Shown: positions 38,330 through 48,294, counted from the stretch's first letter. The stretch is DNA of 64,000 bases from Escherichia coli (GCF_044324785.1 NZ_CP172127.1); one strand, 5' to 3'. The notes: generated by a model from the letters alone, not told the origin. Translations and numbers: made by a program.

Positions 38330-38968
38330 ATGCCCGGGCGCTTTGAACTAAAACCAACCCTGGAGAAAGTCTGGCACGCGCCGGACAATTTTCGCTTCAT
38401 GGACCCGCTGCCGCCGATGCATCGTCGGGGGATCATTATTGCCGCCATTGTATTGGTGGTCGGATTTCTGCTTCCATCTGATGATACGCCCAACGCGCCG
38501 GTGGTGACGCGTGAAGCGCAGTTAGATATTCAGTCGCAATCACAACCGCCGACAGAAGAACAGCTGCGGGCGCAATTAGTCACCCCACAAAATGATCCTG
38601 ATCAGGTGGCTCCGGTCGCTCCAGAACCTATACAGGAAGGCCAGCCAGAAGAGCAGCCGCAAACCACCCAAACGCAACCATTCCAGCCAGATAGCGGAAT
38701 TGATAATCAATGGCGCTCTTACCGTGTCGAACCCGGTAAAACGATGGCGCAGCTGTTCCGCGACCACGGACTGCCCGCTACCGATGTCTATGCAATGGCG
38801 CAGGTAGAAGGCGCGGGTAAGCCGCTGAGTAATTTGCAAAACGGGCAGATGGTGAAAATCCGCCAGAACGCCAGCGGCGTGGTGACGGGCTTAACCATTG
38901 ATACGGGGAATAATCAACAGGTCCTGTTTACCCGCCAGCCGGATGGCAGTTTTATTCGTGCGCGGTAG
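38330..38968 (+). CDS. ytfB: OapA/LysM-like cell-division-associated protein
   Basis: 212 aa from internal ATG ([23 protein letters not shown]...), membrane anchor, Pro/Gln-rich linker. Confidence 0.8.
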
Positions 38969-39599
38969 ATGAAGGATCAACCAAAAGCCAGCTAAGGAGC
39001 GTCTCTTTGATGACCTTACGTCTGGCTTCCAGTGCCTGGGGGGAAACCATACTGATATGATAAACTAGGCCAAGCGTATGCTGGTTGATCAAATAATATC
39101 CCCCAAGCGCAGCAATATTAATATTCACCTGCAATGGGTCGATATCTGGCTTAAAAATATTGTGTTTCTTCCCTTCATCCAATAAGGATTCCATTAACTG
39201 CAAGTGCGCATGGTTAATTTCTAAGAGACGCTGTGATTTTGCATAATGCACACCTTTACTTTGATTTTCACTATGCACAATTTTTAAAAACCAGGGGTTA
39301 GCAATATAATAATCCCATGTAAAATCAATAATTTTCTCAATGGCTTTTTGTGGCGGAAGATCTGAGAAATCAAGGGCCTTTTCTTTTTGTCGAATATCGT
39401 TCCAGGTATATTCCAGTACTTCAATAAATAAATTTTCTTTATTACCAAAGTGATGATAAACCGTCTGTTTACTACACCCCGCAGCCTTAACAATATTATC
39501 GACCCTGGCCCCTTCATAACCATATTCGGCAAATTCATTAACCGCGCATAACAGCAGCTTTTCCTTCAGGCTCTGTACGTTGCTGGTATCAAGATACAT
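38952..39599 (-). CDS. TetR/AcrR-family transcriptional regulator, divergent from the accessory operon (possibly the intact form of K-12 ytfA)
   Basis: 215 aa from ATG at 39599; N-terminal HTH ([23 protein letters not shown]); 3' end overlaps ytfB by about 17 nt. Confidence 0.8.
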
Positions 39600-39721
39600 A
39601 ACGCTTCCCCACGACCTCTTCAAGACAACTATCTTAACCCGATTAATTAGAAGCTCCAGTAAAAAGGATAAAAACTTGTACTTTCATCAAGTTATCAAAT
39701 GTCCTGTGATCACTATCGCAT

Positions 39722-39743
39722 ATCAACCAACCAGATGGTTGAT
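39722..39743. promoter_or_regulatory. Perfect inverted repeat ATCAACCA-N6-TGGTTGAT in divergent promoter region; candidate operator of the TetR regulator
   Basis: Verified against ORF-track translation of this region; a second repeat CTTGCG-N6-CGCAAG lies at about 39748-39765. Confidence 0.4.
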
Positions 39744-39809
39744 CTTTCTTGCGGCACGTCGCAAGCTAATTGTCACTTAGAAACAATATTCAAAAAAGAG
39801 AGCTATTGT

Positions 39810-40601
39810 ATGAAATCCACTCGTCCTGTTGCCGTGATTACCGGAGCCGCTCGTGGTATTGGAAAGGGCTGTGCGCTGGAGCTTGCTCGTGGCGGATTTA
39901 ACCTGCTGATTAACGATCGCCCCGATGATGACAGCGTAGAAAAATTACATGCCACGCAACAGGAATGTCTGGCAGAAGGTGTGGAAGTGATTTGCTTCCC
40001 TGCCGATGTCGGCGATCTCTCCTTGCATGAAGAGATGCTCGACGCGGCACAAAACCAGTGGGGACGTCTGGACTGCCTGCTCAACAACGCAGGCATTTCA
40101 GTGAAAAAACGCGGTGACCTTCTCGACCTCGAACCAGACAGCTTCGACCAAAATATTGCCATTAACACCCGCGCACCGTTCTTCCTCGCTCAGGCATTCA
40201 GTAAGCGCTTACTGGCACAGCCGAAACCGGAAGCAGAACTGCCGCACCGCTCGATTATTTTTGTCAGTTCCATCAACGCCATCATGCTGGCGATGAATCG
40301 CGGCGAATATACCATTGCCAAAACTGCCGTCTCTGCCGCTGCTCGTCTGTTTGCTGCTCGGCTTTGTAATGAACAAATTGGCGTTTATGAAGTGCGTCCT
40401 GGTCTCATCAAAACCGATATGACTATTCCGGCAACGGCCTATTACGACGAACTGATTGCCAAAGGTCTGGTGCCGTGGGGACGTTGGGGTTATCCGGCTG
40501 ATATTGCTTCCACTGTCCGCGCGATGGCGGAAGGTAAACTGATTTACACCTGTGGTCAGGCGGTTGCCATTGACGGCGGCTTAAGTATGCCGCGTTTCTG
40601 A
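39810..40601 (+). CDS. Short-chain dehydrogenase/reductase (classical SDR, FabG-like)
   Basis: 263 aa; TGAARGIGKG cofactor motif, NNAG, catalytic Y-x3-K (YTIAK); RBS AAAGAGAG upstream. Confidence 0.8.
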   Translation: MKSTRPVAVITGAARGIGKGCALELARGGFNLLINDRPDDDSVEKLHATQQECLAEGVEVICFPADVGDLSLHEEMLDAAQNQWGRLDCLLNNAGISVKKRGDLLDLEPDSFDQNIAINTRAPFFLAQAFSKRLLAQPKPEAELPHRSIIFVSSINAIMLAMNRGEYTIAKTAVSAAARLFAARLCNEQIGVYEVRPGLIKTDMTIPATAYYDELIAKGLVPWGRWGYPADIASTVRAMAEGKLIYTCGQAVAIDGGLSMPRF

Positions 40602-40610
40602 GGCTGAATC

Positions 40611-41453
40611 ATGAGAGATCTGTTACAACGCCCGGATTTATTCAGTATCAATACCGCGACACTGGGCTATAAAACGCCGCTTCCCGCCATTATTGATGCC
40701 TGCGCCGCACGCGGTATTGGCGCAATTGCCCCCTGGCGCAGGGAGTTGCAGGGTGAAGATCTCCAGCAAATCGCCCGCCAGCTTGCCGCCAGTAAGATGA
40801 ACGTTTCCGGTTTGTGCCGTAGCACTTACTACACCGCGCCGACACTGGCGGAACGCAAACTGGCGATTGATGATAACCGCCGGGCGCTGGACGACGCAGC
40901 GGTGCTTAACGCCGCCTGTTATATGCAGGTGGTTGGCGGGTTACCGCAGGGAACAAAAGATTTGTACGAAGCGCGGGAACAAGTAAAACAAGGGATTCGC
41001 CAGTTGCTGCCACATTCGAAAGATGTCGGCGTGCCAATTGCGCTGGAGCCGCTGCACCCGATGACTGCTGCCGACCGCTCTTGCCTGTGCACGTTACGTC
41101 AGGCGCTGGACTGGTGTGATGAACTCGATCCCGATGGTGAGTTTGGCCTCGGCGTAGCGGTAGATGTCTACCATGTCTGGTGGGACCCGGATCTCGCCAG
41201 CCAACTCCAGCGCGCCGGAAAACGCATCCTCGCGTTTCATGTTTCCGACTGGTTAGTACCAACCACCGATCTGGTCAATGACCGTGGAATGCCGGGAGAT
41301 GGCGTCATCAATATTCCGTCAATTCGTCGGCTGGTTGAAAACGCCGGATTTAATGGCGCTATTGAACTGGAAATATTCTCGCCGTACTGGTGGCAAAAAG
41401 ATATTAACAGCACGCTGGATATTAGCGTCGATCGCATCGCGCATTATTGCTAA
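40611..41453 (+). CDS. Xylose-isomerase-like TIM-barrel enzyme (sugar-phosphate isomerase/epimerase or dehydratase superfamily)
   Basis: 280 aa; conserved metal-ligand-like positions (LEPLHP, HVSDW, ELEIFS); starts 9 nt after SDR stop. Confidence 0.75.
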   Translation: MRDLLQRPDLFSINTATLGYKTPLPAIIDACAARGIGAIAPWRRELQGEDLQQIARQLAASKMNVSGLCRSTYYTAPTLAERKLAIDDNRRALDDAAVLNAACYMQVVGGLPQGTKDLYEAREQVKQGIRQLLPHSKDVGVPIALEPLHPMTAADRSCLCTLRQALDWCDELDPDGEFGLGVAVDVYHVWWDPDLASQLQRAGKRILAFHVSDWLVPTTDLVNDRGMPGDGVINIPSIRRLVENAGFNGAIELEIFSPYWWQKDINSTLDISVDRIAHYC

Positions 41454-41462
41454 GGAATGATT

Positions 41463-42239
41463 ATGAGTGACCAACCCGTTCTGTTCAGCAGAGCGGCGGC
41501 TTCCTGCCGTCTGACATTGAACCGTGAAGATAAATGTCATGCTATTAATGAAGAGATGATTGAATCTCTCGATCATTATTTAAATGAAATTGAAAACGAC
41601 ACCACATTACGATTAGTCGAATTAACGGCAACCGGCGATAAATTCTTTTGTGCGGGCGGCGATATTAAATCGTGGTCAGCCTATTCGCCATTAGATATGG
41701 GCAGAAAATGGATTAAACGCGGTAATGACGTTTTTAATCGCCTGCGCAACTTACCCCAATTAACCGTTGCAAATCTCAACGGTCATACCATCGGCGGTGG
41801 TATTGAACTTGCTTTGTGCTGCGATATTCGTATTGCCCGTCCCGGCGCGAAATTCTCTAACCCGGAAGTGATGCTCGGCATGGTGCCTGGCTGGATGGGC
41901 ATTGAACGTGTGCTTAATCAGGTCGGTCCGGTGGTCGGTCGCCAGATGCTGATGCTGGGTAAACGCCTGACGGCGCGGGAAGCTCAGGCGGCGAATTTAA
42001 TTGATGAAGTGGTAGAAAAAGAACAGGTGGAAAGCTGGATGGCGAACCAGTTAGCGCAGCTGGAAAAATGTGGTCCGGTGGCGCTCGCACATATCAAGCA
42101 ACTGATTCTGGCACTGGAAAATAAACATGCCGATTACCCGCACCAGCTACTGGCTGGATTAATGTCCGCCACTCAGGATTGCCAGCAGGCGACGCGCGCG
42201 TTTGCCGAAAAAAGTAGCGTGAGCTTCCACAATCAATAA
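41463..42239 (+). CDS. Enoyl-CoA hydratase/isomerase (crotonase fold)
   Basis: 258 aa; oxyanion-hole segments FCAGGDIKSW and NGHTIGGGIELALCCDIRIA; start taken at second ATG, 6 nt after AAGGA. Confidence 0.8.
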   Translation: MSDQPVLFSRAAASCRLTLNREDKCHAINEEMIESLDHYLNEIENDTTLRLVELTATGDKFFCAGGDIKSWSAYSPLDMGRKWIKRGNDVFNRLRNLPQLTVANLNGHTIGGGIELALCCDIRIARPGAKFSNPEVMLGMVPGWMGIERVLNQVGPVVGRQMLMLGKRLTAREAQAANLIDEVVEKEQVESWMANQLAQLEKCGPVALAHIKQLILALENKHADYPHQLLAGLMSATQDCQQATRAFAEKSSVSFHNQ

Positions 42240-42248
42240 GGAAATTGT

Positions 42249-43790
42249 ATGCGTAAGATAACAACCGCCGAGGCACTGGCGGCGCAAATTCAGGACGGCG
42301 CAACCATTGCCATTAGCGGTAACGGCGGCGGCATGGTGGAAGCTGACCATATTATGGCCGCCATTGAAGCGCGTTTCCTGCAAACCGGACACCCTCGCGA
42401 TCTGACATTGATCCACTCGCTGGGTATTGGCGATCGCGACAGCAAAGGCACTAACCGTTTTGCTCACGCCGAAATGCTCAAACGCATTATTGCCGGACAT
42501 TTTACCTGGTCGCCCAAGATGCAGGAACTGGTGAAAAGCAATGCTATTGAAGCCTACTGTTTCCCTGGTGGCGTGATTCAGGCGTTGCTACGGGAGATCG
42601 GTGCCGGACGTCCGGGGCTTTTTACCCACGTTGGGCTGGGATCGTTTGTTGATCCACGCAATGGCGGCGGTAAGTCGAATGAATGCACTACCGACGACCT
42701 GGTAGAACTGATTGAAATCGACGGTGAGACCAAACTTCGTTATCGCCCTTTCAAAGTGGATTACGCGATTTTGCGTGGCACTTATGCCGATCCACGAGGC
42801 AACGTTAGCCTCGAAGAAGAAGCGATTGATATGGATAGCTATTCGATGGCGCTGGCAGCACACAACAGCGGTGGCAAAGTGTTCGTACAGGTACGCGATG
42901 TGCTGGAAGCAGGTGCCATTGAACCACGCCGGGTTAAATTACCGGGGATTCTGGTTGATGGCATCGTTGAACACCGCGAACAGCCACAAACCTATCTTGG
43001 CAGTTACGACCTGACCATCAGCGGCCAACATCGCCGTCTGAGTTCTAACGACGCTATTGAGCTGGTTAGTCATCCGGTGCGTCGCCTGATTGCCCGTCGG
43101 GCAGCGCGGGAACTGGTGGCAGGCGCTTCAACCAACTTTGGCTTTGGTATTCCCGGCGGCATTCCAGGAGTAGCGCTGCGCGAAGGCGTGCCTTACCAAA
43201 GTTTATGGCTGAGCGTCGAGCAAGGCGTGCATAACGGTATGATGCTGGATGATGCGTTTTTCGGCTGCGCCCGCAACGCCGATGCCATTATTCCATCACT
43301 CGATCAATTTGAGTTCTACAGTGGTGGAGGGATCGATATCACCTTCCTCGGCATGGGAGAGATGGATCAGTACGGTAACGTCAACGTATCCCATCTCAAT
43401 GGCAATCTGATTGGCCCCGGCGGATTTCTCGAAATTGCGCAAAATGCCCGTAAAGTGGTGTTCTGCGGCACGTTCGACGCTAAAGGCAGCAAAATCGATA
43501 TAACGCCAGATGGCTTGCATATCGCCCAGTCAGGTCAAATCCCTAAACTGGTTACCCAGGTGGAAAAAATCACTTTTAGCGCCGCCTACGCACAGCAAAG
43601 TGGTCAGGAAGTGTTGTATATCACTGAGCGCGCAGTATTCCAGTTAACGGCAGAAGGCGTTGAATTAATTGAAATCGCGCCGGGTGTAGAGATTGAGCGC
43701 GACATTCTGCCGTTCATGGCTTTCCGTCCAATTATCAAGCACCCACGCCTGATGGAAAGTAGCCTGTTTACGCCGATGGAGGATGCATGA
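42249..43790 (+). CDS. Family-I CoA-transferase, fused alpha/beta subunits (YdiF / propionate-CoA-transferase-like)
   Basis: 513 aa; N-terminal ISGNGGG and later SGGGIDITFLGMGEMDQYGNVNVS segments typical of 3-oxoacid CoA-transferases. Confidence 0.75.
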   Translation: MRKITTAEALAAQIQDGATIAISGNGGGMVEADHIMAAIEARFLQTGHPRDLTLIHSLGIGDRDSKGTNRFAHAEMLKRIIAGHFTWSPKMQELVKSNAIEAYCFPGGVIQALLREIGAGRPGLFTHVGLGSFVDPRNGGGKSNECTTDDLVELIEIDGETKLRYRPFKVDYAILRGTYADPRGNVSLEEEAIDMDSYSMALAAHNSGGKVFVQVRDVLEAGAIEPRRVKLPGILVDGIVEHREQPQTYLGSYDLTISGQHRRLSSNDAIELVSHPVRRLIARRAARELVAGASTNFGFGIPGGIPGVALREGVPYQSLWLSVEQGVHNGMMLDDAFFGCARNADAIIPSLDQFEFYSGGGIDITFLGMGEMDQYGNVNVSHLNGNLIGPGGFLEIAQNARKVVFCGTFDAKGSKIDITPDGLHIAQSGQIPKLVTQVEKITFSAAYAQQSGQEVLYITERAVFQLTAEGVELIEIAPGVEIERDILPFMAFRPIIKHPRLMESSLFTPMEDA

Positions 43791-45859
43791 GTCAGCTTGA
43801 TGACACCATCCTTGATGCGCTGACGCACGTCACTTTCCCAAAGGGGTTTGTGTCAGCAGAGCCAACGTCAATTGTCACCGTTGAGGATGTTGATTACCCG
43901 ATCTGGCAAGTTGATGCGCTGGTCGTTGGTAGCGGCGCAGCAGGATTACGTGCGGCAGTTGAACTTAAACGCCGCCAGCAAAATGTGCTGATCGCCACCG
44001 CCGGGTTATATATGGGGACGTCGGCATGTTCTGGTTCCGATAAACAGACGTTGTTTACCGCCGCTACCGCGGGCAACGGCGACAACTTCGCCAAACTGGC
44101 AGAGGCACTTGCGAGCGGTGGGGCGATGGATCACGACACCGCTTATGTCGAAGCGGTAGGTTCTCTGCACACTCTTGGCGGGTTGCAATATCTTGGTCTG
44201 GAATTACCGGAAGATCGCTATGGCGCGATTCTTCGTTATCAAACCGACCATGACGAAGCCGGGCGTGCAACCTCGTGTGGGCCGCGTACCTCAAGGTTAA
44301 TGGTGAAAGTGCTGCTGGAAGAAGTACAGCGTCTTGCTATCCCAATGTTGACCAGTGCAACAGTGATTAAACTGCTGCATCAGCGTGACGAAAACGGCGA
44401 AGACCGCGTGGCGGGGGCTATCCTCGCGACCGGTCATCGCGCCCATAACCCATGGGGGCTGGCAATTGTGATTGCGCCCAATGTGGTACTGGCAACAGGA
44501 GGGCCTGGCGAGCTTTATCGCGACAGTGTGTACCCACACAAATGTTTCGGCTCGCTGGGTCTGGCGCTGGAGGAAGGTCTGACGCTAACGAATCTGACTG
44601 AAAGCCAGTTTGGTATAGGCACACCGCGCAGCACGTTTCCGTGGAATTTGTCCGGGACTTATGTACAGGTGATCCCATATATCTATTCCGTGGATGCTGA
44701 GGGTAACGAGTATAACTTCCTCGCGGATTACTATCGCACCACCCAGGAGCTGGCTTCAAACATTTTCCGTAAAGGCTATCAGTGGCCGTTCCACGCCACT
44801 CGGGTGATGGATTTTGGCTCCAGCTTGTTAGATATGGCAGTAGCGCAAGAGCAGCAATCAGGGCGTCAGGTATTTATGGATTTCAATCGCAATCCTGAAG
44901 CGGTGCCGGGTGACCTGCCCTTCTCATTAGATCGACTGGACGACGACGTTCGCGCGTATCTGGAAAATAACGACGCTCTGGCACCATCGCCCATCGAACG
45001 GCTGCAACGAATGAATCCGCTGTCTATCTCGCTGTATAAGATGCACGGTTACGATCTCACCACACAGCCATTGCAGTTTGCCATGAATAATCAGCATATG
45101 AATGGCGGCATTGAAGTCGATATCTGGGGACAAACATCTCTACCCGGTTGTTTTGCAGTGGGGGAAGTTGCTGGCACACACGGCGTCACCCGACCTGGCG
45201 GCGCGGCATTGAATGCCGGGCAGGTTTTTGCTGTTCGTCTGGCACGTTTTATTGGTTGCACGCAAAAGCGGAATATTGATGGAGATATAGCACAGCTGGC
45301 AGCTCCGGCACTGGCTTCTATAAGAGAGATCATTACTCAGGCGCACGATAACGGGACCGGGATGCCGTTGTCGGTTGTGAGAGAAAAAATTCAGGCACGA
45401 ATGTCTGACCATGCGGGATTTATTTGTCATGCCGATAAAGTCCGACGCGCCACTCGTGATGCCCTGCTATTGAACGAATTTGTCCAACGGCATGGATTGG
45501 CAATCAAACATGTGGGTGAAGTTTCCGAGCTGTTTATGTGGCGGCATATGGCGCTGACTTCTGCCGCGGTATTAACACAATTAACGCATTATATTGATGC
45601 TGGTGGCGGCAGTCGTGGGGCGCGGATGGTTATTGATCCACAAGGCAAATGCCTACCACAAACTCGTCGCGGCGTAAAAGAAGAATGGCGTTTTCGCTCT
45701 GAACTCGCTGAAGATAAAAATCACAAATTAACAATTCAATATTCGCAAGGTTCTTTTATTACCGAAGTAAAGTCTTTACGTATGCAACCGTGTATTAACG
45801 GTATTTACTTTGAAAAAAACTGGCCAGACTTTTTAAAGGGAGACATTTACACACAATAA
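43787..45859 (+). CDS. FAD-binding oxidoreductase of the fumarate-reductase/succinate-dehydrogenase flavoprotein superfamily
   Basis: 690 aa; dinucleotide fold VVGSGAAGLRAA, later GEVAGTHGVTRPGGAALNAGQVFAVRLARF; ATGA overlap with upstream gene. Confidence 0.75.
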   Translation: MSQLDDTILDALTHVTFPKGFVSAEPTSIVTVEDVDYPIWQVDALVVGSGAAGLRAAVELKRRQQNVLIATAGLYMGTSACSGSDKQTLFTAATAGNGDNFAKLAEALASGGAMDHDTAYVEAVGSLHTLGGLQYLGLELPEDRYGAILRYQTDHDEAGRATSCGPRTSRLMVKVLLEEVQRLAIPMLTSATVIKLLHQRDENGEDRVAGAILATGHRAHNPWGLAIVIAPNVVLATGGPGELYRDSVYPHKCFGSLGLALEEGLTLTNLTESQFGIGTPRSTFPWNLSGTYVQVIPYIYSVDAEGNEYNFLADYYRTTQELASNIFRKGYQWPFHATRVMDFGSSLLDMAVAQEQQSGRQVFMDFNRNPEAVPGDLPFSLDRLDDDVRAYLENNDALAPSPIERLQRMNPLSISLYKMHGYDLTTQPLQFAMNNQHMNGGIEVDIWGQTSLPGCFAVGEVAGTHGVTRPGGAALNAGQVFAVRLARFIGCTQKRNIDGDIAQLAAPALASIREIITQAHDNGTGMPLSVVREKIQARMSDHAGFICHADKVRRATRDALLLNEFVQRHGLAIKHVGEVSELFMWRHMALTSAAVLTQLTHYIDAGGGSRGARMVIDPQGKCLPQTRRGVKEEWRFRSELAEDKNHKLTIQYSQGSFITEVKSLRMQPCINGIYFEKNWPDFLKGDIYTQ

Positions 45860-45951: not shown

Positions 45952-47229
45952 ATGAATAAAATAAAGAATTATCGATGGCATATGATTGCCCTCGTATGCT
46001 TTATCACTGTAATCAATTATCTGGACAGAACGGCGTTAGGTATTGCGGCTCCAACGATTATGGAGACAACCGGAATAACTAAAGAGCAATATTCATGGAT
46101 TGTCAGTGCATTCCAGTTGGCCTATACATTAGGGCAACCGGTAATGGGCTTCTTTATTGATACCGTGGGTCTGAAGTTAAGTTTTGCGATATGTGCCGCA
46201 ATTTGGGGCCTGGCGACAATGGGCCATGCACTAACCGGAACGTGGTCTGGTCTGGCATTTATGCGCGCCCTGATGGGTTTCAGCGAAGCGTCGGCAATTC
46301 CGGCGGGTGTAAAAACCGCATCAACATGGTTCCCGGCAAAAGAGCGTGGCGTGGCGACAGGTGTTTTCAATATGGGCACCTCACTCGGCGCGATGCTTGC
46401 TCCACCGTTGATTGCCTGGTGCATTATGTTTCATAGCTGGCAATTTGCGTTTATTGTTTCAGGTAGCCTTGCTTTGCTCGCGGCTTTATTTTGGTTCTTT
46501 TGTTATAAAGATCCGAAAGATGCCAAACGCCTTTCTGATGAAGAGCGCCACTATATTGAATCAGGGCAAGAACAGCATCTTAAAACAGATAAGAAAGAAA
46601 AAACGTCAATCAAGCATATCCTCAGCCAACGTAATTTCTGGGGGATTGGCATCGCGCGTTTTCTCGCAGACCCGGCATGGGGAACCATTAACTTCTGGGT
46701 GCCGATTTTCTTCGTCGAAACGCTGCATTTTAGCCTGAAAGAAATTGCCATGTTCGTCTGGCTGCCTTTCCTGCTGGGCGATCTCGGCTGTTTAGCCAGT
46801 GGTTTTGTCGCGAAGTTCTTCCACGATCGCGGCGTGAGTTTAATTAACTCACGAAGAATTACCTTCACTATTGCAGCCGTCATTATGATGACGATTGGCC
46901 TGGTGAGTATTGTCGAAAATCCCTACATTGCCGTATTACTGATTAGTATTGGCGCGTTCTCGCATCAATGTCTTTCTACTGTAGCAGCAACTCTGGGTGG
47001 CGATCTGTTCAAAAAAGACGAAGTAGCTACCGCAGTGGGTATGGCAGGAGCCTGTGCGTGGAGCGGTCAGTTGATTTTCAACCTGTTCATCGGGGCATTC
47101 GTTCACATTATCGGCTTCGCGCCGTTCTTTATTGCCCTGGCTTTCTTTGACATTATTGGTGCTATTGCGTTGTGGACGCTTATCAAAGTTAAAGATGAAG
47201 AACCGCAAGTACAGCTAGCTACCCATTAA
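45952..47229 (+). CDS. MFS transporter, anion:cation symporter (ACS) family, ExuT/DgoT-like
   Basis: 425 aa; N-terminus NYRWHMIALVCFITVINYLDRTALGIAAPTIME and FPAKERG loop resemble hexuronate/aldonate transporters. Confidence 0.85.
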   Translation: MNKIKNYRWHMIALVCFITVINYLDRTALGIAAPTIMETTGITKEQYSWIVSAFQLAYTLGQPVMGFFIDTVGLKLSFAICAAIWGLATMGHALTGTWSGLAFMRALMGFSEASAIPAGVKTASTWFPAKERGVATGVFNMGTSLGAMLAPPLIAWCIMFHSWQFAFIVSGSLALLAALFWFFCYKDPKDAKRLSDEERHYIESGQEQHLKTDKKEKTSIKHILSQRNFWGIGIARFLADPAWGTINFWVPIFFVETLHFSLKEIAMFVWLPFLLGDLGCLASGFVAKFFHDRGVSLINSRRITFTIAAVIMMTIGLVSIVENPYIAVLLISIGAFSHQCLSTVAATLGGDLFKKDEVATAVGMAGACAWSGQLIFNLFIGAFVHIIGFAPFFIALAFFDIIGAIALWTLIKVKDEEPQVQLATH

Positions 47230-47499: not shown

Positions 47500-48294
47500 A
47501 TGACATTACCAACCACTATTTATTCATTTCCTGCATATTCACCCCGTTTTTCGTCCACCGACAAACCAGTAAAATTAAAATTTCATCAATACGCACGCGC
47601 TACATTACTTTCAAATCGTGGAAGAGATCATAATTGCGATGGCAGACATACTGTTGAGATCCACAAACTAGATCTCTCAGACTGGCAAGCATTCAATAAA
47701 CTAGCGATGGCGTGTAATGCTTACGATGGAATAACAATGAATGGTGATAATTCTTTTGGATGGAACCATGAAGCTACATTAGATAATATTCACGCCCAGA
47801 AATACAATAAAGCTTACGCGGGTGCGAGGTTAACCGCAGAACTGAAATATTTATTGCAAGATGTCGAATCCTTCGAACCCAACAGTAAATACACAATACA
47901 CGAGGTTGTTTTGGGTCCAGGTTATGGTACTCCAGACTATACCGGCCAAACGATAGGATACGTTGTAACCCTTCCTGCCCAAATGCCTAATTGCTGGTCA
48001 TCTGAACTACCAACAATCGATCTTTATATCGACCAACTTCGCACTGTTACAGGCGTTTCTAATGCCCTCGGATTCATCATTGCTGCATTGCTAAACGCGT
48101 ATTCTGATTTACCCCATGATTTGAAAATTGGTCTGCGTTCCTTATCAAGTTCAGCAGCAATCTACTCGGGTTTGGGTTTCGAGCGAGTGCCGCAGGGCCG
48201 AGACATAAGGTGCGATCATATGCATCTAACGCCAGCAAACCATCCTGAATTATGGACACAAGAGAATGGTGAATGGATCTACTTGCGAAACTAA
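47500..48294 (+). CDS. yjfZ: Uncharacterised DUF2686-like protein YjfZ (AT-rich gene)
   Basis: 264 aa, no motifs recognised, preceded by 270-bp AT-rich spacer; position next to rplI matches yjfZ. Confidence 0.7.
   Translation: MTLPTTIYSFPAYSPRFSSTDKPVKLKFHQYARATLLSNRGRDHNCDGRHTVEIHKLDLSDWQAFNKLAMACNAYDGITMNGDNSFGWNHEATLDNIHAQKYNKAYAGARLTAELKYLLQDVESFEPNSKYTIHEVVLGPGYGTPDYTGQTIGYVVTLPAQMPNCWSSELPTIDLYIDQLRTVTGVSNALGFIIAALLNAYSDLPHDLKIGLRSLSSSAAIYSGLGFERVPQGRDIRCDHMHLTPANHPELWTQENGEWIYLRN

Follow-up and report, generated by a model that had tools for sequence, protein, structure and literature searches.

The window analysed here is a stretch of 64,000 nucleotides from Escherichia coli (GCF_044324785.1 NZ_CP172127.1), and it carries a six-gene operon between ytfB and yjfZ/rplI. 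In order, the operon encodes a short-chain dehydrogenase/reductase (SDR), a TIM-barrel protein, a crotonase, a coenzyme A (CoA)-transferase, a flavoprotein, and a major facilitator superfamily (MFS) transporter; a TetR-family regulator is encoded divergently (Table 1). Our subject is the flavoprotein, the product of the fifth gene, which an earlier note on this sequence had singled out as an unusually long relative of the fumarate reductase and succinate dehydrogenase flavoproteins (FrdA and SdhA) and of L-aspartate oxidase (NadB). We find that it is a real, intact, cytoplasmic, stand-alone flavin adenine dinucleotide (FAD) enzyme with no Fe-S partner gene.

The open reading frame (ORF) at 43787-45859 on the plus strand is intact, starts with ATG, and encodes 690 amino acids in our ORF calls for the window. 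Its ATG shares four nucleotides (ATGA) with the stop of the upstream CoA-transferase gene. In E. coli N3, RefSeq annotates an identical frame of equal length and names the product 'FAD-dependent oxidoreductase'. A Pfam search of the protein matched FAD_binding_2 (PF00890) over residues 43-475 (E = 1.5e-27), in the kind of hidden Markov model search that the earlier note had proposed, and returned no other significant domain; the Succ_DH_flav_C domain of SdhA, FrdA, and NadB went undetected. Superfamily membership is borne out by this match and by an FAD domain that is interrupted by a capping domain. The FAD-binding site is intact, with GxGxxG, ATGG, and GE..G all kept. The Rossmann signature that the note had reported is GSGAAG, at residues 48-53. 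ATGGPG lies at residues 236-241, and the C-terminal GE..G motif (residues 459-466) opens the segment GEVAGTHGVTRPGGAALNAGQ (residues 459-479). The same segment holds the GEVAGTHGVTRPGG motif that the note had pointed to in place of HGANRLGxNSL.

Ahead of the Rossmann strand are 42 residues, close to the N-terminal extension of about 45 that had been claimed. The extension is modelled as ordered (block-mean predicted local distance difference test, pLDDT, of 71-96) and is kept at full length in the Klebsiella and Salmonella orthologues (100% coverage). Within the family alignment, the full extension is confined to an enteric/alpha-proteobacterial clade, in which GxGxxG starts at residue 46-50; it starts at about residue 24 in a clade at 36-41% identity.

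The flavoprotein has no histidine between residues 14 and 116, as read from its sequence, and on this point the note was right. In three independent alignments, the histidine that holds FAD covalently in FrdA (His44) and SdhA (His45) aligns to G77, S79, or A80/C81. Across the stretch from 70 to 92, any histidine at all is found in 3 of 50 family members, and at no conserved column. In place of the flavinylation loop of SdhA/FrdA is the family signature loop GTSACSGSDKQT, in which S79, G83, S84, D85, K86, Q87, and T88 are invariant. The missing histidine is not itself unusual, as this is the usual state of soluble superfamily members such as NadB and FRD. (FRD is the NADH:fumarate reductase described in 10.1101/2022.01.20.477176.)

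The substrate site has been kept in part. In the relatives of this protein, a His/Arg pair of the FAD domain anchors the substrate carboxylate beside flavin N5. Using hhalign, we matched this pair (FrdA His355 and Arg390) to H437 and R469, both of which are invariant in a 50-member family alignment. Five of the seven FrdA fumarate-site residues are not kept: His232 corresponds to the invariant G276, Thr244 to Q294, Glu245 to V295, Arg248 to a gap, and Arg287, with low confidence, to A337. The position of Fcc3 Arg402 also falls on A337, with R339 (lysine in most members) two residues off, in a part of the alignment that is unreliable. HMMER gave no alignment between the capping domain and any of the solved relatives, and hhalign places it with low reliability. 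The invariant residues of the capping domain are Q274, G276, W286, N287, S289, G290, Q294, K329, G330, Y331, W333, P334, S345, S346, D349, and R405; the last is its sole invariant arginine and corresponds to the structural 'RLP' motif.

Bertsova et al. (10.1101/2022.01.20.477176) assign the C4-carboxylate to motif I, the C1-carboxylate to motif II, and the proton path to motif III, and a protein in which motif I is kept and motifs II and III are changed is predicted to have a different substrate. Read from its sequence in this framework, the flavoprotein keeps part of motif I and has motifs II and III replaced. The capping residues that give specificity for fumarate or aspartate are, by the same alignments, replaced by a different family-invariant set. 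The earlier note had left room for an ordinary FrdA paralogue with the covalent histidine and the fumarate-binding residues conserved. We made that alignment: the covalent histidine is missing and five of the seven fumarate-site residues are not kept, and so an ordinary paralogue is not supported.

We built an AlphaFold model of the flavoprotein from a 50-sequence alignment (pLDDT 93.3, predicted template-modelling score 0.94). A Foldseek search of the PDB with this model ranks SdhA/FrdA first (E about 1e-31, 15-19% identity). Because of the model and this ranking, we assign the protein to the predicted four-domain SdhA/NadB type of fold and not to the shorter Fcc3/KstD type. Thus the structure prediction that the note had proposed gave an SdhA/FrdA-type four-domain fold with high confidence. 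Two of the note's other claims hold only in part. First, in the C-terminal part that the note called divergent, the model keeps the helical and C-terminal domain folds of SdhA/FrdA. Second, the protein is long relative to E. coli FrdA (602 amino acids), SdhA (588), and NadB (540), and the extra length over FrdA comprises 36-42 N-terminal residues, about 34 in the capping domain, and about 26 at the C terminus. However, the length is typical of its own family, because family members run 620-700 amino acids.

A search of 1.84 billion representatives places at least 420 clusters (at 50% identity, E <= 1e-30) in this family, nearly all of them 620-700 amino acids long and matching end to end. Fifty members at 33-54% identity share 59 invariant columns, and the family signatures are G-T-S-x-N-x-G-S-D-K-Q-T, W-N-x-S-G-x-Y-x-Q, F-x-K-G-Y-x-W-P, Q-H-x-N-G-G, and R-P-G-G. 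The family spans Proteobacteria, Planctomycetota, Lentisphaerae, Verrucomicrobia, Firmicutes, and archaea. Structural neighbours in the AlphaFold database (TM-score 0.85-0.97) come from Proteobacteria, Firmicutes, Treponema, Coriobacteriia, candidate phyla, and an Asgard archaeon; all are generically named, and the family label is merely "FAD-binding protein". The NCBIfam models for FrdA, SdhA, and NadB all score 4-10 fold under their curated cut-offs. (The best score is for TfrA, at 124 bits versus a cut-off of 718. The NadB models TIGR00551 and NF005867 give 99 bits versus 453 and 108 versus 639, and the SdhA/FrdA models TIGR01812 and NF006686 give 80 bits versus 567 and 43 versus 854.) Our literature search turned up no publication about either the family or the operon, and a paper on the Brucella flavoproteome has no family member in it. 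The earlier note's phrase, a new substrate-specificity class, thus describes the protein fairly: this is a distinct FAD_binding_2 family in which we found no characterised member. The note's proposal of a soluble enoate reductase or dehydrogenase remains tentative, drawing on fold and gene context.

Table 1. Features of the operon, its regulator, and the flavoprotein gene (window coordinates).
Feature	Position	Strand	Evidence
TetR/AcrR-family regulator 'ytfA', intact, divergent from the operon	38952..39623	-	NCBIfam TetR-family matches only
Perfect palindrome ATCAACCA-N6-TGGTTGAT between the TetR and SDR genes, candidate operator	39722..39743		8-nt inverted repeat
SDR, NCBIfam PRK12745 type	39810..40601	+	NF009386, 420 bits vs cut-off 250
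AP_endonuc_2/xylose-isomerase-like TIM barrel, 'sugar phosphate isomerase/epimerase family'	40611..41453	+	PF01261 in orthologues
Crotonase-family enoyl-CoA hydratase	41457..42239	+	Pfam ECH_1 in orthologues
Fused alpha/beta family-I CoA-transferase, YdiF/FadX type	42249..43790	+	YdiF 2ahu, 388 bits; NCBIfam FadX, 385 bits
Flavoprotein, 690 aa; predicted SdhA/NadB-type four-domain fold, remodelled substrate site	43787..45859	+	
N-terminal extension (residues 1-42), helix and beta-hairpin ahead of the Rossmann strand	43787..43912	+	AF2 secondary structure, pLDDT
Family signature loop GTSACSGSDKQT, replacing the His-bearing flavinylation loop of SdhA/FrdA	44015..44050	+	Family alignment, SdhA/FrdA alignments
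Capping-domain region with family-invariant residues	44600..45019	+	Family alignment, hhalign
FAD-domain active-site segment: NNQHMNGG with H437, GEVAGTHGVTRPGG with R469	45086..45223	+	
MFS transporter, anion:cation symporter (D-galactonate/hexuronate type)	45952..47229	+	TIGR00893, 315 bits vs cut-off 395

In the PDB, the TIM barrel is related to 3qc0/3ju2, which are structural-genomics entries (288 bits), and to 7vpf (209 bits). Its named relatives (IolI, IolO, and hydroxypyruvate isomerase) are all weak, and it has no detectable similarity to the 3-dehydroshikimate dehydratases in the PDB. The translated crotonase has both catalytic Glu motifs, GGGIELA and NPEVMLG, and scores 130-150 bits against the NCBIfam enoyl-CoA hydratase families, under their cut-offs. 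The MFS transporter, whose gene has the same position in Klebsiella and Salmonella, is presumed to import the organic-acid substrate of the operon. There are no genes for Fe-S or membrane-anchor subunits in the operon or its flanks, among the ORFs of the window and the Klebsiella and Salmonella loci; frdABCD is elsewhere in the E. coli genome, about 45 kb off in the reference strain. Two E. coli records (P0006 and P0029) have ORFs of 1043-1078 amino acids that join the CoA-transferase and the flavoprotein. We rejected these 'fusions' as Rosetta-stone evidence, as they are probably products of stop loss or frameshift at the ATGA overlap.

The regulator is slightly shorter in RefSeq (215 amino acids), and its orthologues carry Pfam TetR_N/TetR_C_29. 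The palindrome between the TetR and SDR genes, which was also recovered as a stem, is a plausible TetR operator on the basis of its sequence. Its core CAACC...AG.TG is invariant in aligned intergenic regions from E. coli, E. albertii, Klebsiella, Salmonella, Brenneria, and Escherichia sp. ESNIH1. As the core is kept though the operons differ in content, it suggests that the operon variants respond to related effectors. For the SDR gene, the start used in RefSeq and in the homologues is the ATG at 39810 (263 amino acids), and a mechanical ORF call begins at 39699 (300 amino acids). The 37 upstream codons (39699-39809), which overlap the candidate operator, are probably untranslated.

This region is 96-98% identical to E. 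coli chromosomes. With a 9.5-kb query that covers the six-gene operon, the TetR gene, and the flanking yjfZ (coverage of at least 80%), we found the unit in 1654 of 5426 complete E. coli genomes (about 30%). E. coli K-12 retains only a remnant of the operon. The regulator gene ytfA has been reported from only some E. coli strains (PMC6790063). Klebsiella oxytoca and Salmonella enterica have the seven-gene unit (operon plus TetR gene) at this ytfB-rplI site too, with flavoprotein orthologues that are 77-79% identical to the E. coli protein, and the operon is conserved there in strains of the Klebsiella oxytoca group and in some Salmonella. Directly downstream of the operon in the window is yjfZ (DUF2686, 47500-48294), which has no NCBIfam match; outside Escherichia (in Klebsiella and Salmonella) its position is taken by an EamA-family gene. 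One paper proposes E. coli-specific conserved signature proteins as water-quality markers (PMC11057252). Elsewhere in the window, the segment 28001-30000 has a G+C content of 0.42, versus about 0.52 in the rest, and may have been acquired horizontally.

We surveyed the gene context of the wider family at 80 loci. The commonest conserved neighbour is a homologue of the SDR (29 of the 80), which is still 37-39% identical in distant loci of the Planctomycetes-Verrucomicrobia-Chlamydiae type. The TIM barrel co-occurs with the flavoprotein gene in Brenneria, type-B enterics, Lentisphaeria, Opitutia, and beta-proteobacteria. The Brenneria locus has TetR, SDR, TIM-barrel, and flavoprotein genes with a PcaK-like transporter of the aromatic-acid type. 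Other enterics, Lentisphaeria, Opitutia, and beta-proteobacteria have TetR, SDR, Gfo/Idh/MocA, TIM barrel, MFS, and flavoprotein. (OYE-GltD neighbours in type-B enterics, where OYE is Old Yellow Enzyme, were disregarded as they are the housekeeping gltBD genes.) In alpha-proteobacteria, the loci contain a sugar ABC transporter, two GMC oxidoreductases, Dabb, LacI, Gfo/Idh/MocA, the flavoprotein, 2-keto-3-deoxygluconate (KDG) kinase, and 2-keto-3-deoxy-6-phosphogluconate (KDPG) aldolase. Four of these genes overlap one another, namely a levoglucosan-dehydrogenase-like Gfo/Idh/MocA gene, the flavoprotein gene, kdgK, and eda. The Phycisphaerae loci have an OYE-GltD fusion, SDR, KDPG aldolase, a BNR_4 protein, the flavoprotein, KDG kinase, and MtnA. 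In many operons of this group, a BNR_4 protein of about 500 amino acids, whose N-terminal segment is hydrophobic, is encoded between the genes for KDPG aldolase and the flavoprotein (L072, 8364-9905); this placement may hint at a glycan-derived substrate in Phycisphaerae.

OYE genes also occur beside the flavoprotein gene in metagenomic loci. In two of these (L087 and L088), the OYE genes are separate and either overlap the flavoprotein gene or lie directly against it, which is consistent with translational coupling, and in one metagenomic locus a glycoside hydrolase family 4 (GH4) gene adjoins the OYE-flavoprotein pair. The 1084-residue protein P0150 (L089, 10001-13255) is a natural fusion of an Oxidored_FMN domain (OYE, with a Cys-rich segment) to the flavoprotein, and its gene is flanked by TIM-barrel and SDR genes. 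These arrangements suggest that OYE and the family flavoprotein act as one redox unit in some anaerobes. FMN_bind was seen nowhere among the family proteins and loci that we examined. Two large proteins (about 526 and 765 amino acids) precede the TIM-OYE-flavoprotein-SDR module in L088 (1491-5374) and L089 (3806-8985). They are 52% identical between the two loci and have no Pfam or NCBIfam match, and they could be unrecognised glycan-active enzymes.

A YdiF-type CoA-transferase lies near the flavoprotein gene in four further lineages (L011, L033, L047, and L065), in all of which it is accompanied by crotonase or MaoC hydratases. Two of these loci have long operons with an AcrC-like acyl-CoA dehydrogenase: one in a beta-proteobacterial metagenome-assembled genome (L011, 13-12109), which also has EtfAB and a TRAP transporter, and one in a Desulfobacterales metagenome-assembled genome (L065, 987-13133). 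The gene sets of L011 and L065 resemble an acrylate/3-hydroxypropionate-type module.

We propose that the flavoprotein is a soluble FAD oxidoreductase that transfers hydride next to the carboxylate or carbonyl of a sugar-acid-like intermediate, and we consider the case for this to be evenly balanced. The enzyme would bind FAD non-covalently and would hold a carboxylate or carbonyl of its substrate with H437 and R469, so that, in a hydroxy- or keto-acid, hydride could pass between flavin N5 and the carbon adjacent to that group. The outcome would be a C-C desaturation or, in reverse, an ene-reduction, and the co-conserved SDR would make or remove the activating carbonyl. Because Gfo/Idh/MocA, the TIM barrel, KDG kinase, and KDPG aldolase recur as neighbours, the substrate would most likely be sugar-acid-like or cyclitol-acid-like. 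In anaerobes, the OYE fusion and the overlapping OYE genes point to electron exchange with an ene-reductase-type flavoprotein. Relative to its sister operons, the E. coli-type operon has an organic-anion importer, a CoA-transferase, and a hydratase in place of Gfo/Idh/MocA. In Escherichia, Klebsiella, and Salmonella, the CoA-transferase and the hydratase would process a short hydroxy-acid precursor or product and not the substrate of the flavoprotein. This division of labour is probable because most family members lack CoA enzymes nearby and share the invariant residues, and because L011 and L065 have canonical acyl-CoA dehydrogenases alongside the flavoprotein.

A broader version of the proposal is more tentative. 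By analogy, the family could be a new functional class in which an SdhA-fold enzyme and an SDR (with OYE in anaerobes) carry out redox-assisted desaturation or ene-reduction of sugar- or cyclitol-derived acids, with the E. coli-type operon as a CoA-linked pathway; we view this as possible but doubtful. The operon of Escherichia, Klebsiella, and Salmonella would then serve to break down or dehydroxylate, by a CoA-linked route, an organic acid that comes from the diet or the host. Speculative candidates for this acid are a hydroaromatic acid (quinate or shikimate) and a deoxy- or unsaturated uronate. The hydroaromatic candidate is weakened because the TIM barrel is unlike the 3-dehydroshikimate dehydratases in the PDB. 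We also considered single pathways. An inositol route (IolG/IolE/IolO-like) fits some loci but not all, nor the whole E. coli operon. The same partial fit was found for KduI/KduD-type uronate, levoglucosan/3-keto-glycoside, 3-hydroxypropionate/acrylate, and quinate/shikimate routes, and none was adopted.

Several points weigh against the proposed hydride-transfer role. The functional statements rest on the fold, two conserved residues, and the gene neighbourhood, and the capping-domain equivalences, that of FrdA R287 above all, fall in a stretch of the profile-sequence alignment where confidence is low. The family contexts are mixed (ABC transporter with GMC; uronate-like with KDG; acrylate-pathway-like with CoA), and because of this heterogeneity the substrates could differ between clades. 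Also, the E. coli operon has no KDG kinase, aldolase, or OYE partner, which makes the transfer of inferences from other phyla weak. Finally, the overlap with the stop of the CoA-transferase gene leaves room for a CoA-thioester substrate.

This last point leads to the strongest alternative, which is that the flavoprotein substitutes for an acyl-CoA dehydrogenase or enoyl-CoA reductase in a beta-oxidation-like cycle without thiolase. The CoA-transferase would activate the imported acid, the flavoprotein would desaturate or reduce the thioester, the crotonase would hydrate it, and the SDR would oxidise the 3-hydroxyacyl-CoA. The gene order (hydratase, CoA-transferase, flavoprotein) and the ATGA overlap fit such a cycle, as do the two catalytic Glu residues of the crotonase and the recurrence of YdiF-type CoA-transferases in L011, L033, L047, and L065. 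However, CoA enzymes are missing from the neighbourhood of most family members (those in loci of types A, B, and C and in Brenneria), which nonetheless have the 59 invariant columns in common with the E. coli protein. Also, L011 and L065 have an AcrC-like acyl-CoA dehydrogenase besides, so the flavoprotein is not the CoA-ester reductase there. To our knowledge, no member of the SdhA/NadB branch acts on CoA esters. We think this explanation unlikely, though it deserves to be taken seriously.

A second alternative is a soluble 2-enoate reductase of a known type (for urocanate, acrylate, methacrylate, or cinnamate) that would serve as an anaerobic electron sink, with acrylate as an example. The superfamily is the right one, the carboxylate-binding His/Arg pair is kept, and the CoA-transferase, hydratase, and AcrC-like contexts recall acrylate-pathway genes. 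Furthermore, the distant OYE partners and the OYE fusion mirror the architecture of Klebsiella FRD and Vibrio ARD (10.1101/2022.01.20.477176). But the known enzymes keep the equivalent of Arg402, and no arginine aligns with it here, albeit in a region of low reliability. There is neither an FMN_bind nor a cytochrome domain, the E. coli operon has no OYE partner, and the conserved neighbours are sugar-type enzymes. This makes an enzyme of known type quite improbable.

Third, the flavoprotein might not be a redox enzyme at all, but a hydratase, dehydratase, or isomerase in which the flavin is only catalytic. The catalytic acid/base set of its redox relatives is replaced, and dehydration and isomerisation reactions abound in the pathway context. 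On the other hand, the characterised members that we cite (SdhA/FrdA, NadB, FRD/ARD, and KstD) are all redox enzymes, and the OYE fusion and the overlapping OYE genes argue for electron transfer. We rate a non-redox role as less likely again. Fourth, a NadB-like C-N oxidase could act on an amino-sugar acid or another amino acid and release ammonia and a 2-keto acid. The kept carboxylate-binding pair would suit it, and aminotransferase-like genes occur in some distant loci. But the equivalents of the catalytic His and Arg of the NadB capping domain are not conserved, and the E. coli operon lacks genes for a deaminase, for ammonia handling, or for amino-acid transport, so we give this little credence. 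Finally, an ordinary fumarate reductase, succinate dehydrogenase, or L-aspartate oxidase paralogue is effectively refuted: these enzymes are the top matches in sequence and structure, but the scores fall far below the curated cut-offs, the covalent histidine and most fumarate-site residues are missing, there are no Fe-S or anchor genes, and E. coli already has frdABCD.

Another clade of FAD_binding_2 proteins would come as no surprise to a specialist. The operon is nevertheless an accessory trait that is common in gut Enterobacteriaceae and amenable to study; it is compact, regulated, and variably present in E. coli, with the flavoprotein as its signature enzyme. The candidate operator and the TetR regulator offer a direct route to its substrate. 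Identifying that substrate would define one more factor in the nutrient niches of gut Enterobacteriaceae, and a family with hundreds of sequence clusters would have its first assigned function.

Among known systems, one for comparison is AprA, the alpha subunit of adenosine 5'-phosphosulfate/3'-phosphoadenosine 5'-phosphosulfate reductase (PDB 8a8o, 3gyx). The sequence similarity is marginal (E = 0.16 with a single sequence), there is no AprB-type Fe-S partner, and the E. coli operon has no genes for sulfur metabolism. Bile-acid dehydroxylation, with its logic of SDR, flavoprotein, and OYE, is analogous to the new functional class discussed above. KstD and cyclohexanone dehydrogenase act after a hydroxysteroid or alcohol dehydrogenase, so that a carbonyl is formed and then the adjacent C-C bond is desaturated, which matches the pairing of SDR and flavoprotein. 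KstD shares the FAD_binding_2 fold, but unlike the flavoprotein it lacks the helical and C-terminal domains, its context is steroid and not sugar or acid metabolism, and we could not identify its Tyr triad in the flavoprotein. R-P-G-G of the flavoprotein is presumably nearer to Y-P-G-A-G of KstD than to R-L-G-G-N of FrdA.

The cytoplasmic NADH:2-enoate reductases that combine an OYE-like domain, an FMN_bind domain, and a FAD_binding_2 domain are Klebsiella FRD, Vibrio harveyi ARD, and Vibrio ruber CrdAB (10.1101/2022.01.20.477176, 10.1101/2023.03.04.531086). Like them, the flavoprotein has a soluble FAD_binding_2 domain, probably non-covalent FAD, and motif I kept with motifs II and III changed; an OYE fusion or adjoining OYE gene is found only in its distant family members. 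Unlike the flavoprotein, these reductases belong to an Fcc3/UrdA-like branch without the helical domain, and they are terminal reductases and not part of a multi-enzyme catabolic operon. They keep the catalytic arginine, whose position in the flavoprotein lies in an unreliably aligned region. Neither the E. coli protein nor its operon has an OYE-like or FMN_bind domain or gene.

NadB (PDB 1knr, 5kxj) is closer: it is stand-alone and soluble, lies on the same structural branch, and has no dedicated Fe-S partner. Its FAD is non-covalent, and the sequence of the flavoprotein predicts the same. The flavoprotein is 150 amino acids longer, does not conserve the catalytic residues of the capping domain, scores 50-108 bits against NCBIfam NadB models with cut-offs of 450-720, and is encoded in a catabolic operon and not with NAD biosynthesis. 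With SdhA/FrdA (E. coli FrdA, PDB 1kf6), it shares the FAD, capping, helical, and C-terminal domains, the FAD motifs, the equivalents of His355 and Arg390 (H437 and R469), and the RLP and SRG motifs. It differs in having no covalent-FAD histidine, no FrdB/SdhB partner, and no detectable Succ_DH_flav_C, at 15-19% identity, and in not conserving FrdA His232, Thr244, Glu245, Arg248, and Arg287. Overall, the family belongs with these enzymes only at the level of the superfamily, and neither to SdhA/FrdA nor to NadB; it is a well-conserved orphan flavoenzyme and not a categorically new kind of system. The flavoprotein probably works most like NadB and SdhA in its scaffold and in how it anchors the substrate, and its mechanistic value is in the chemistry of that scaffold once the fumarate-specific capping residues have been replaced.

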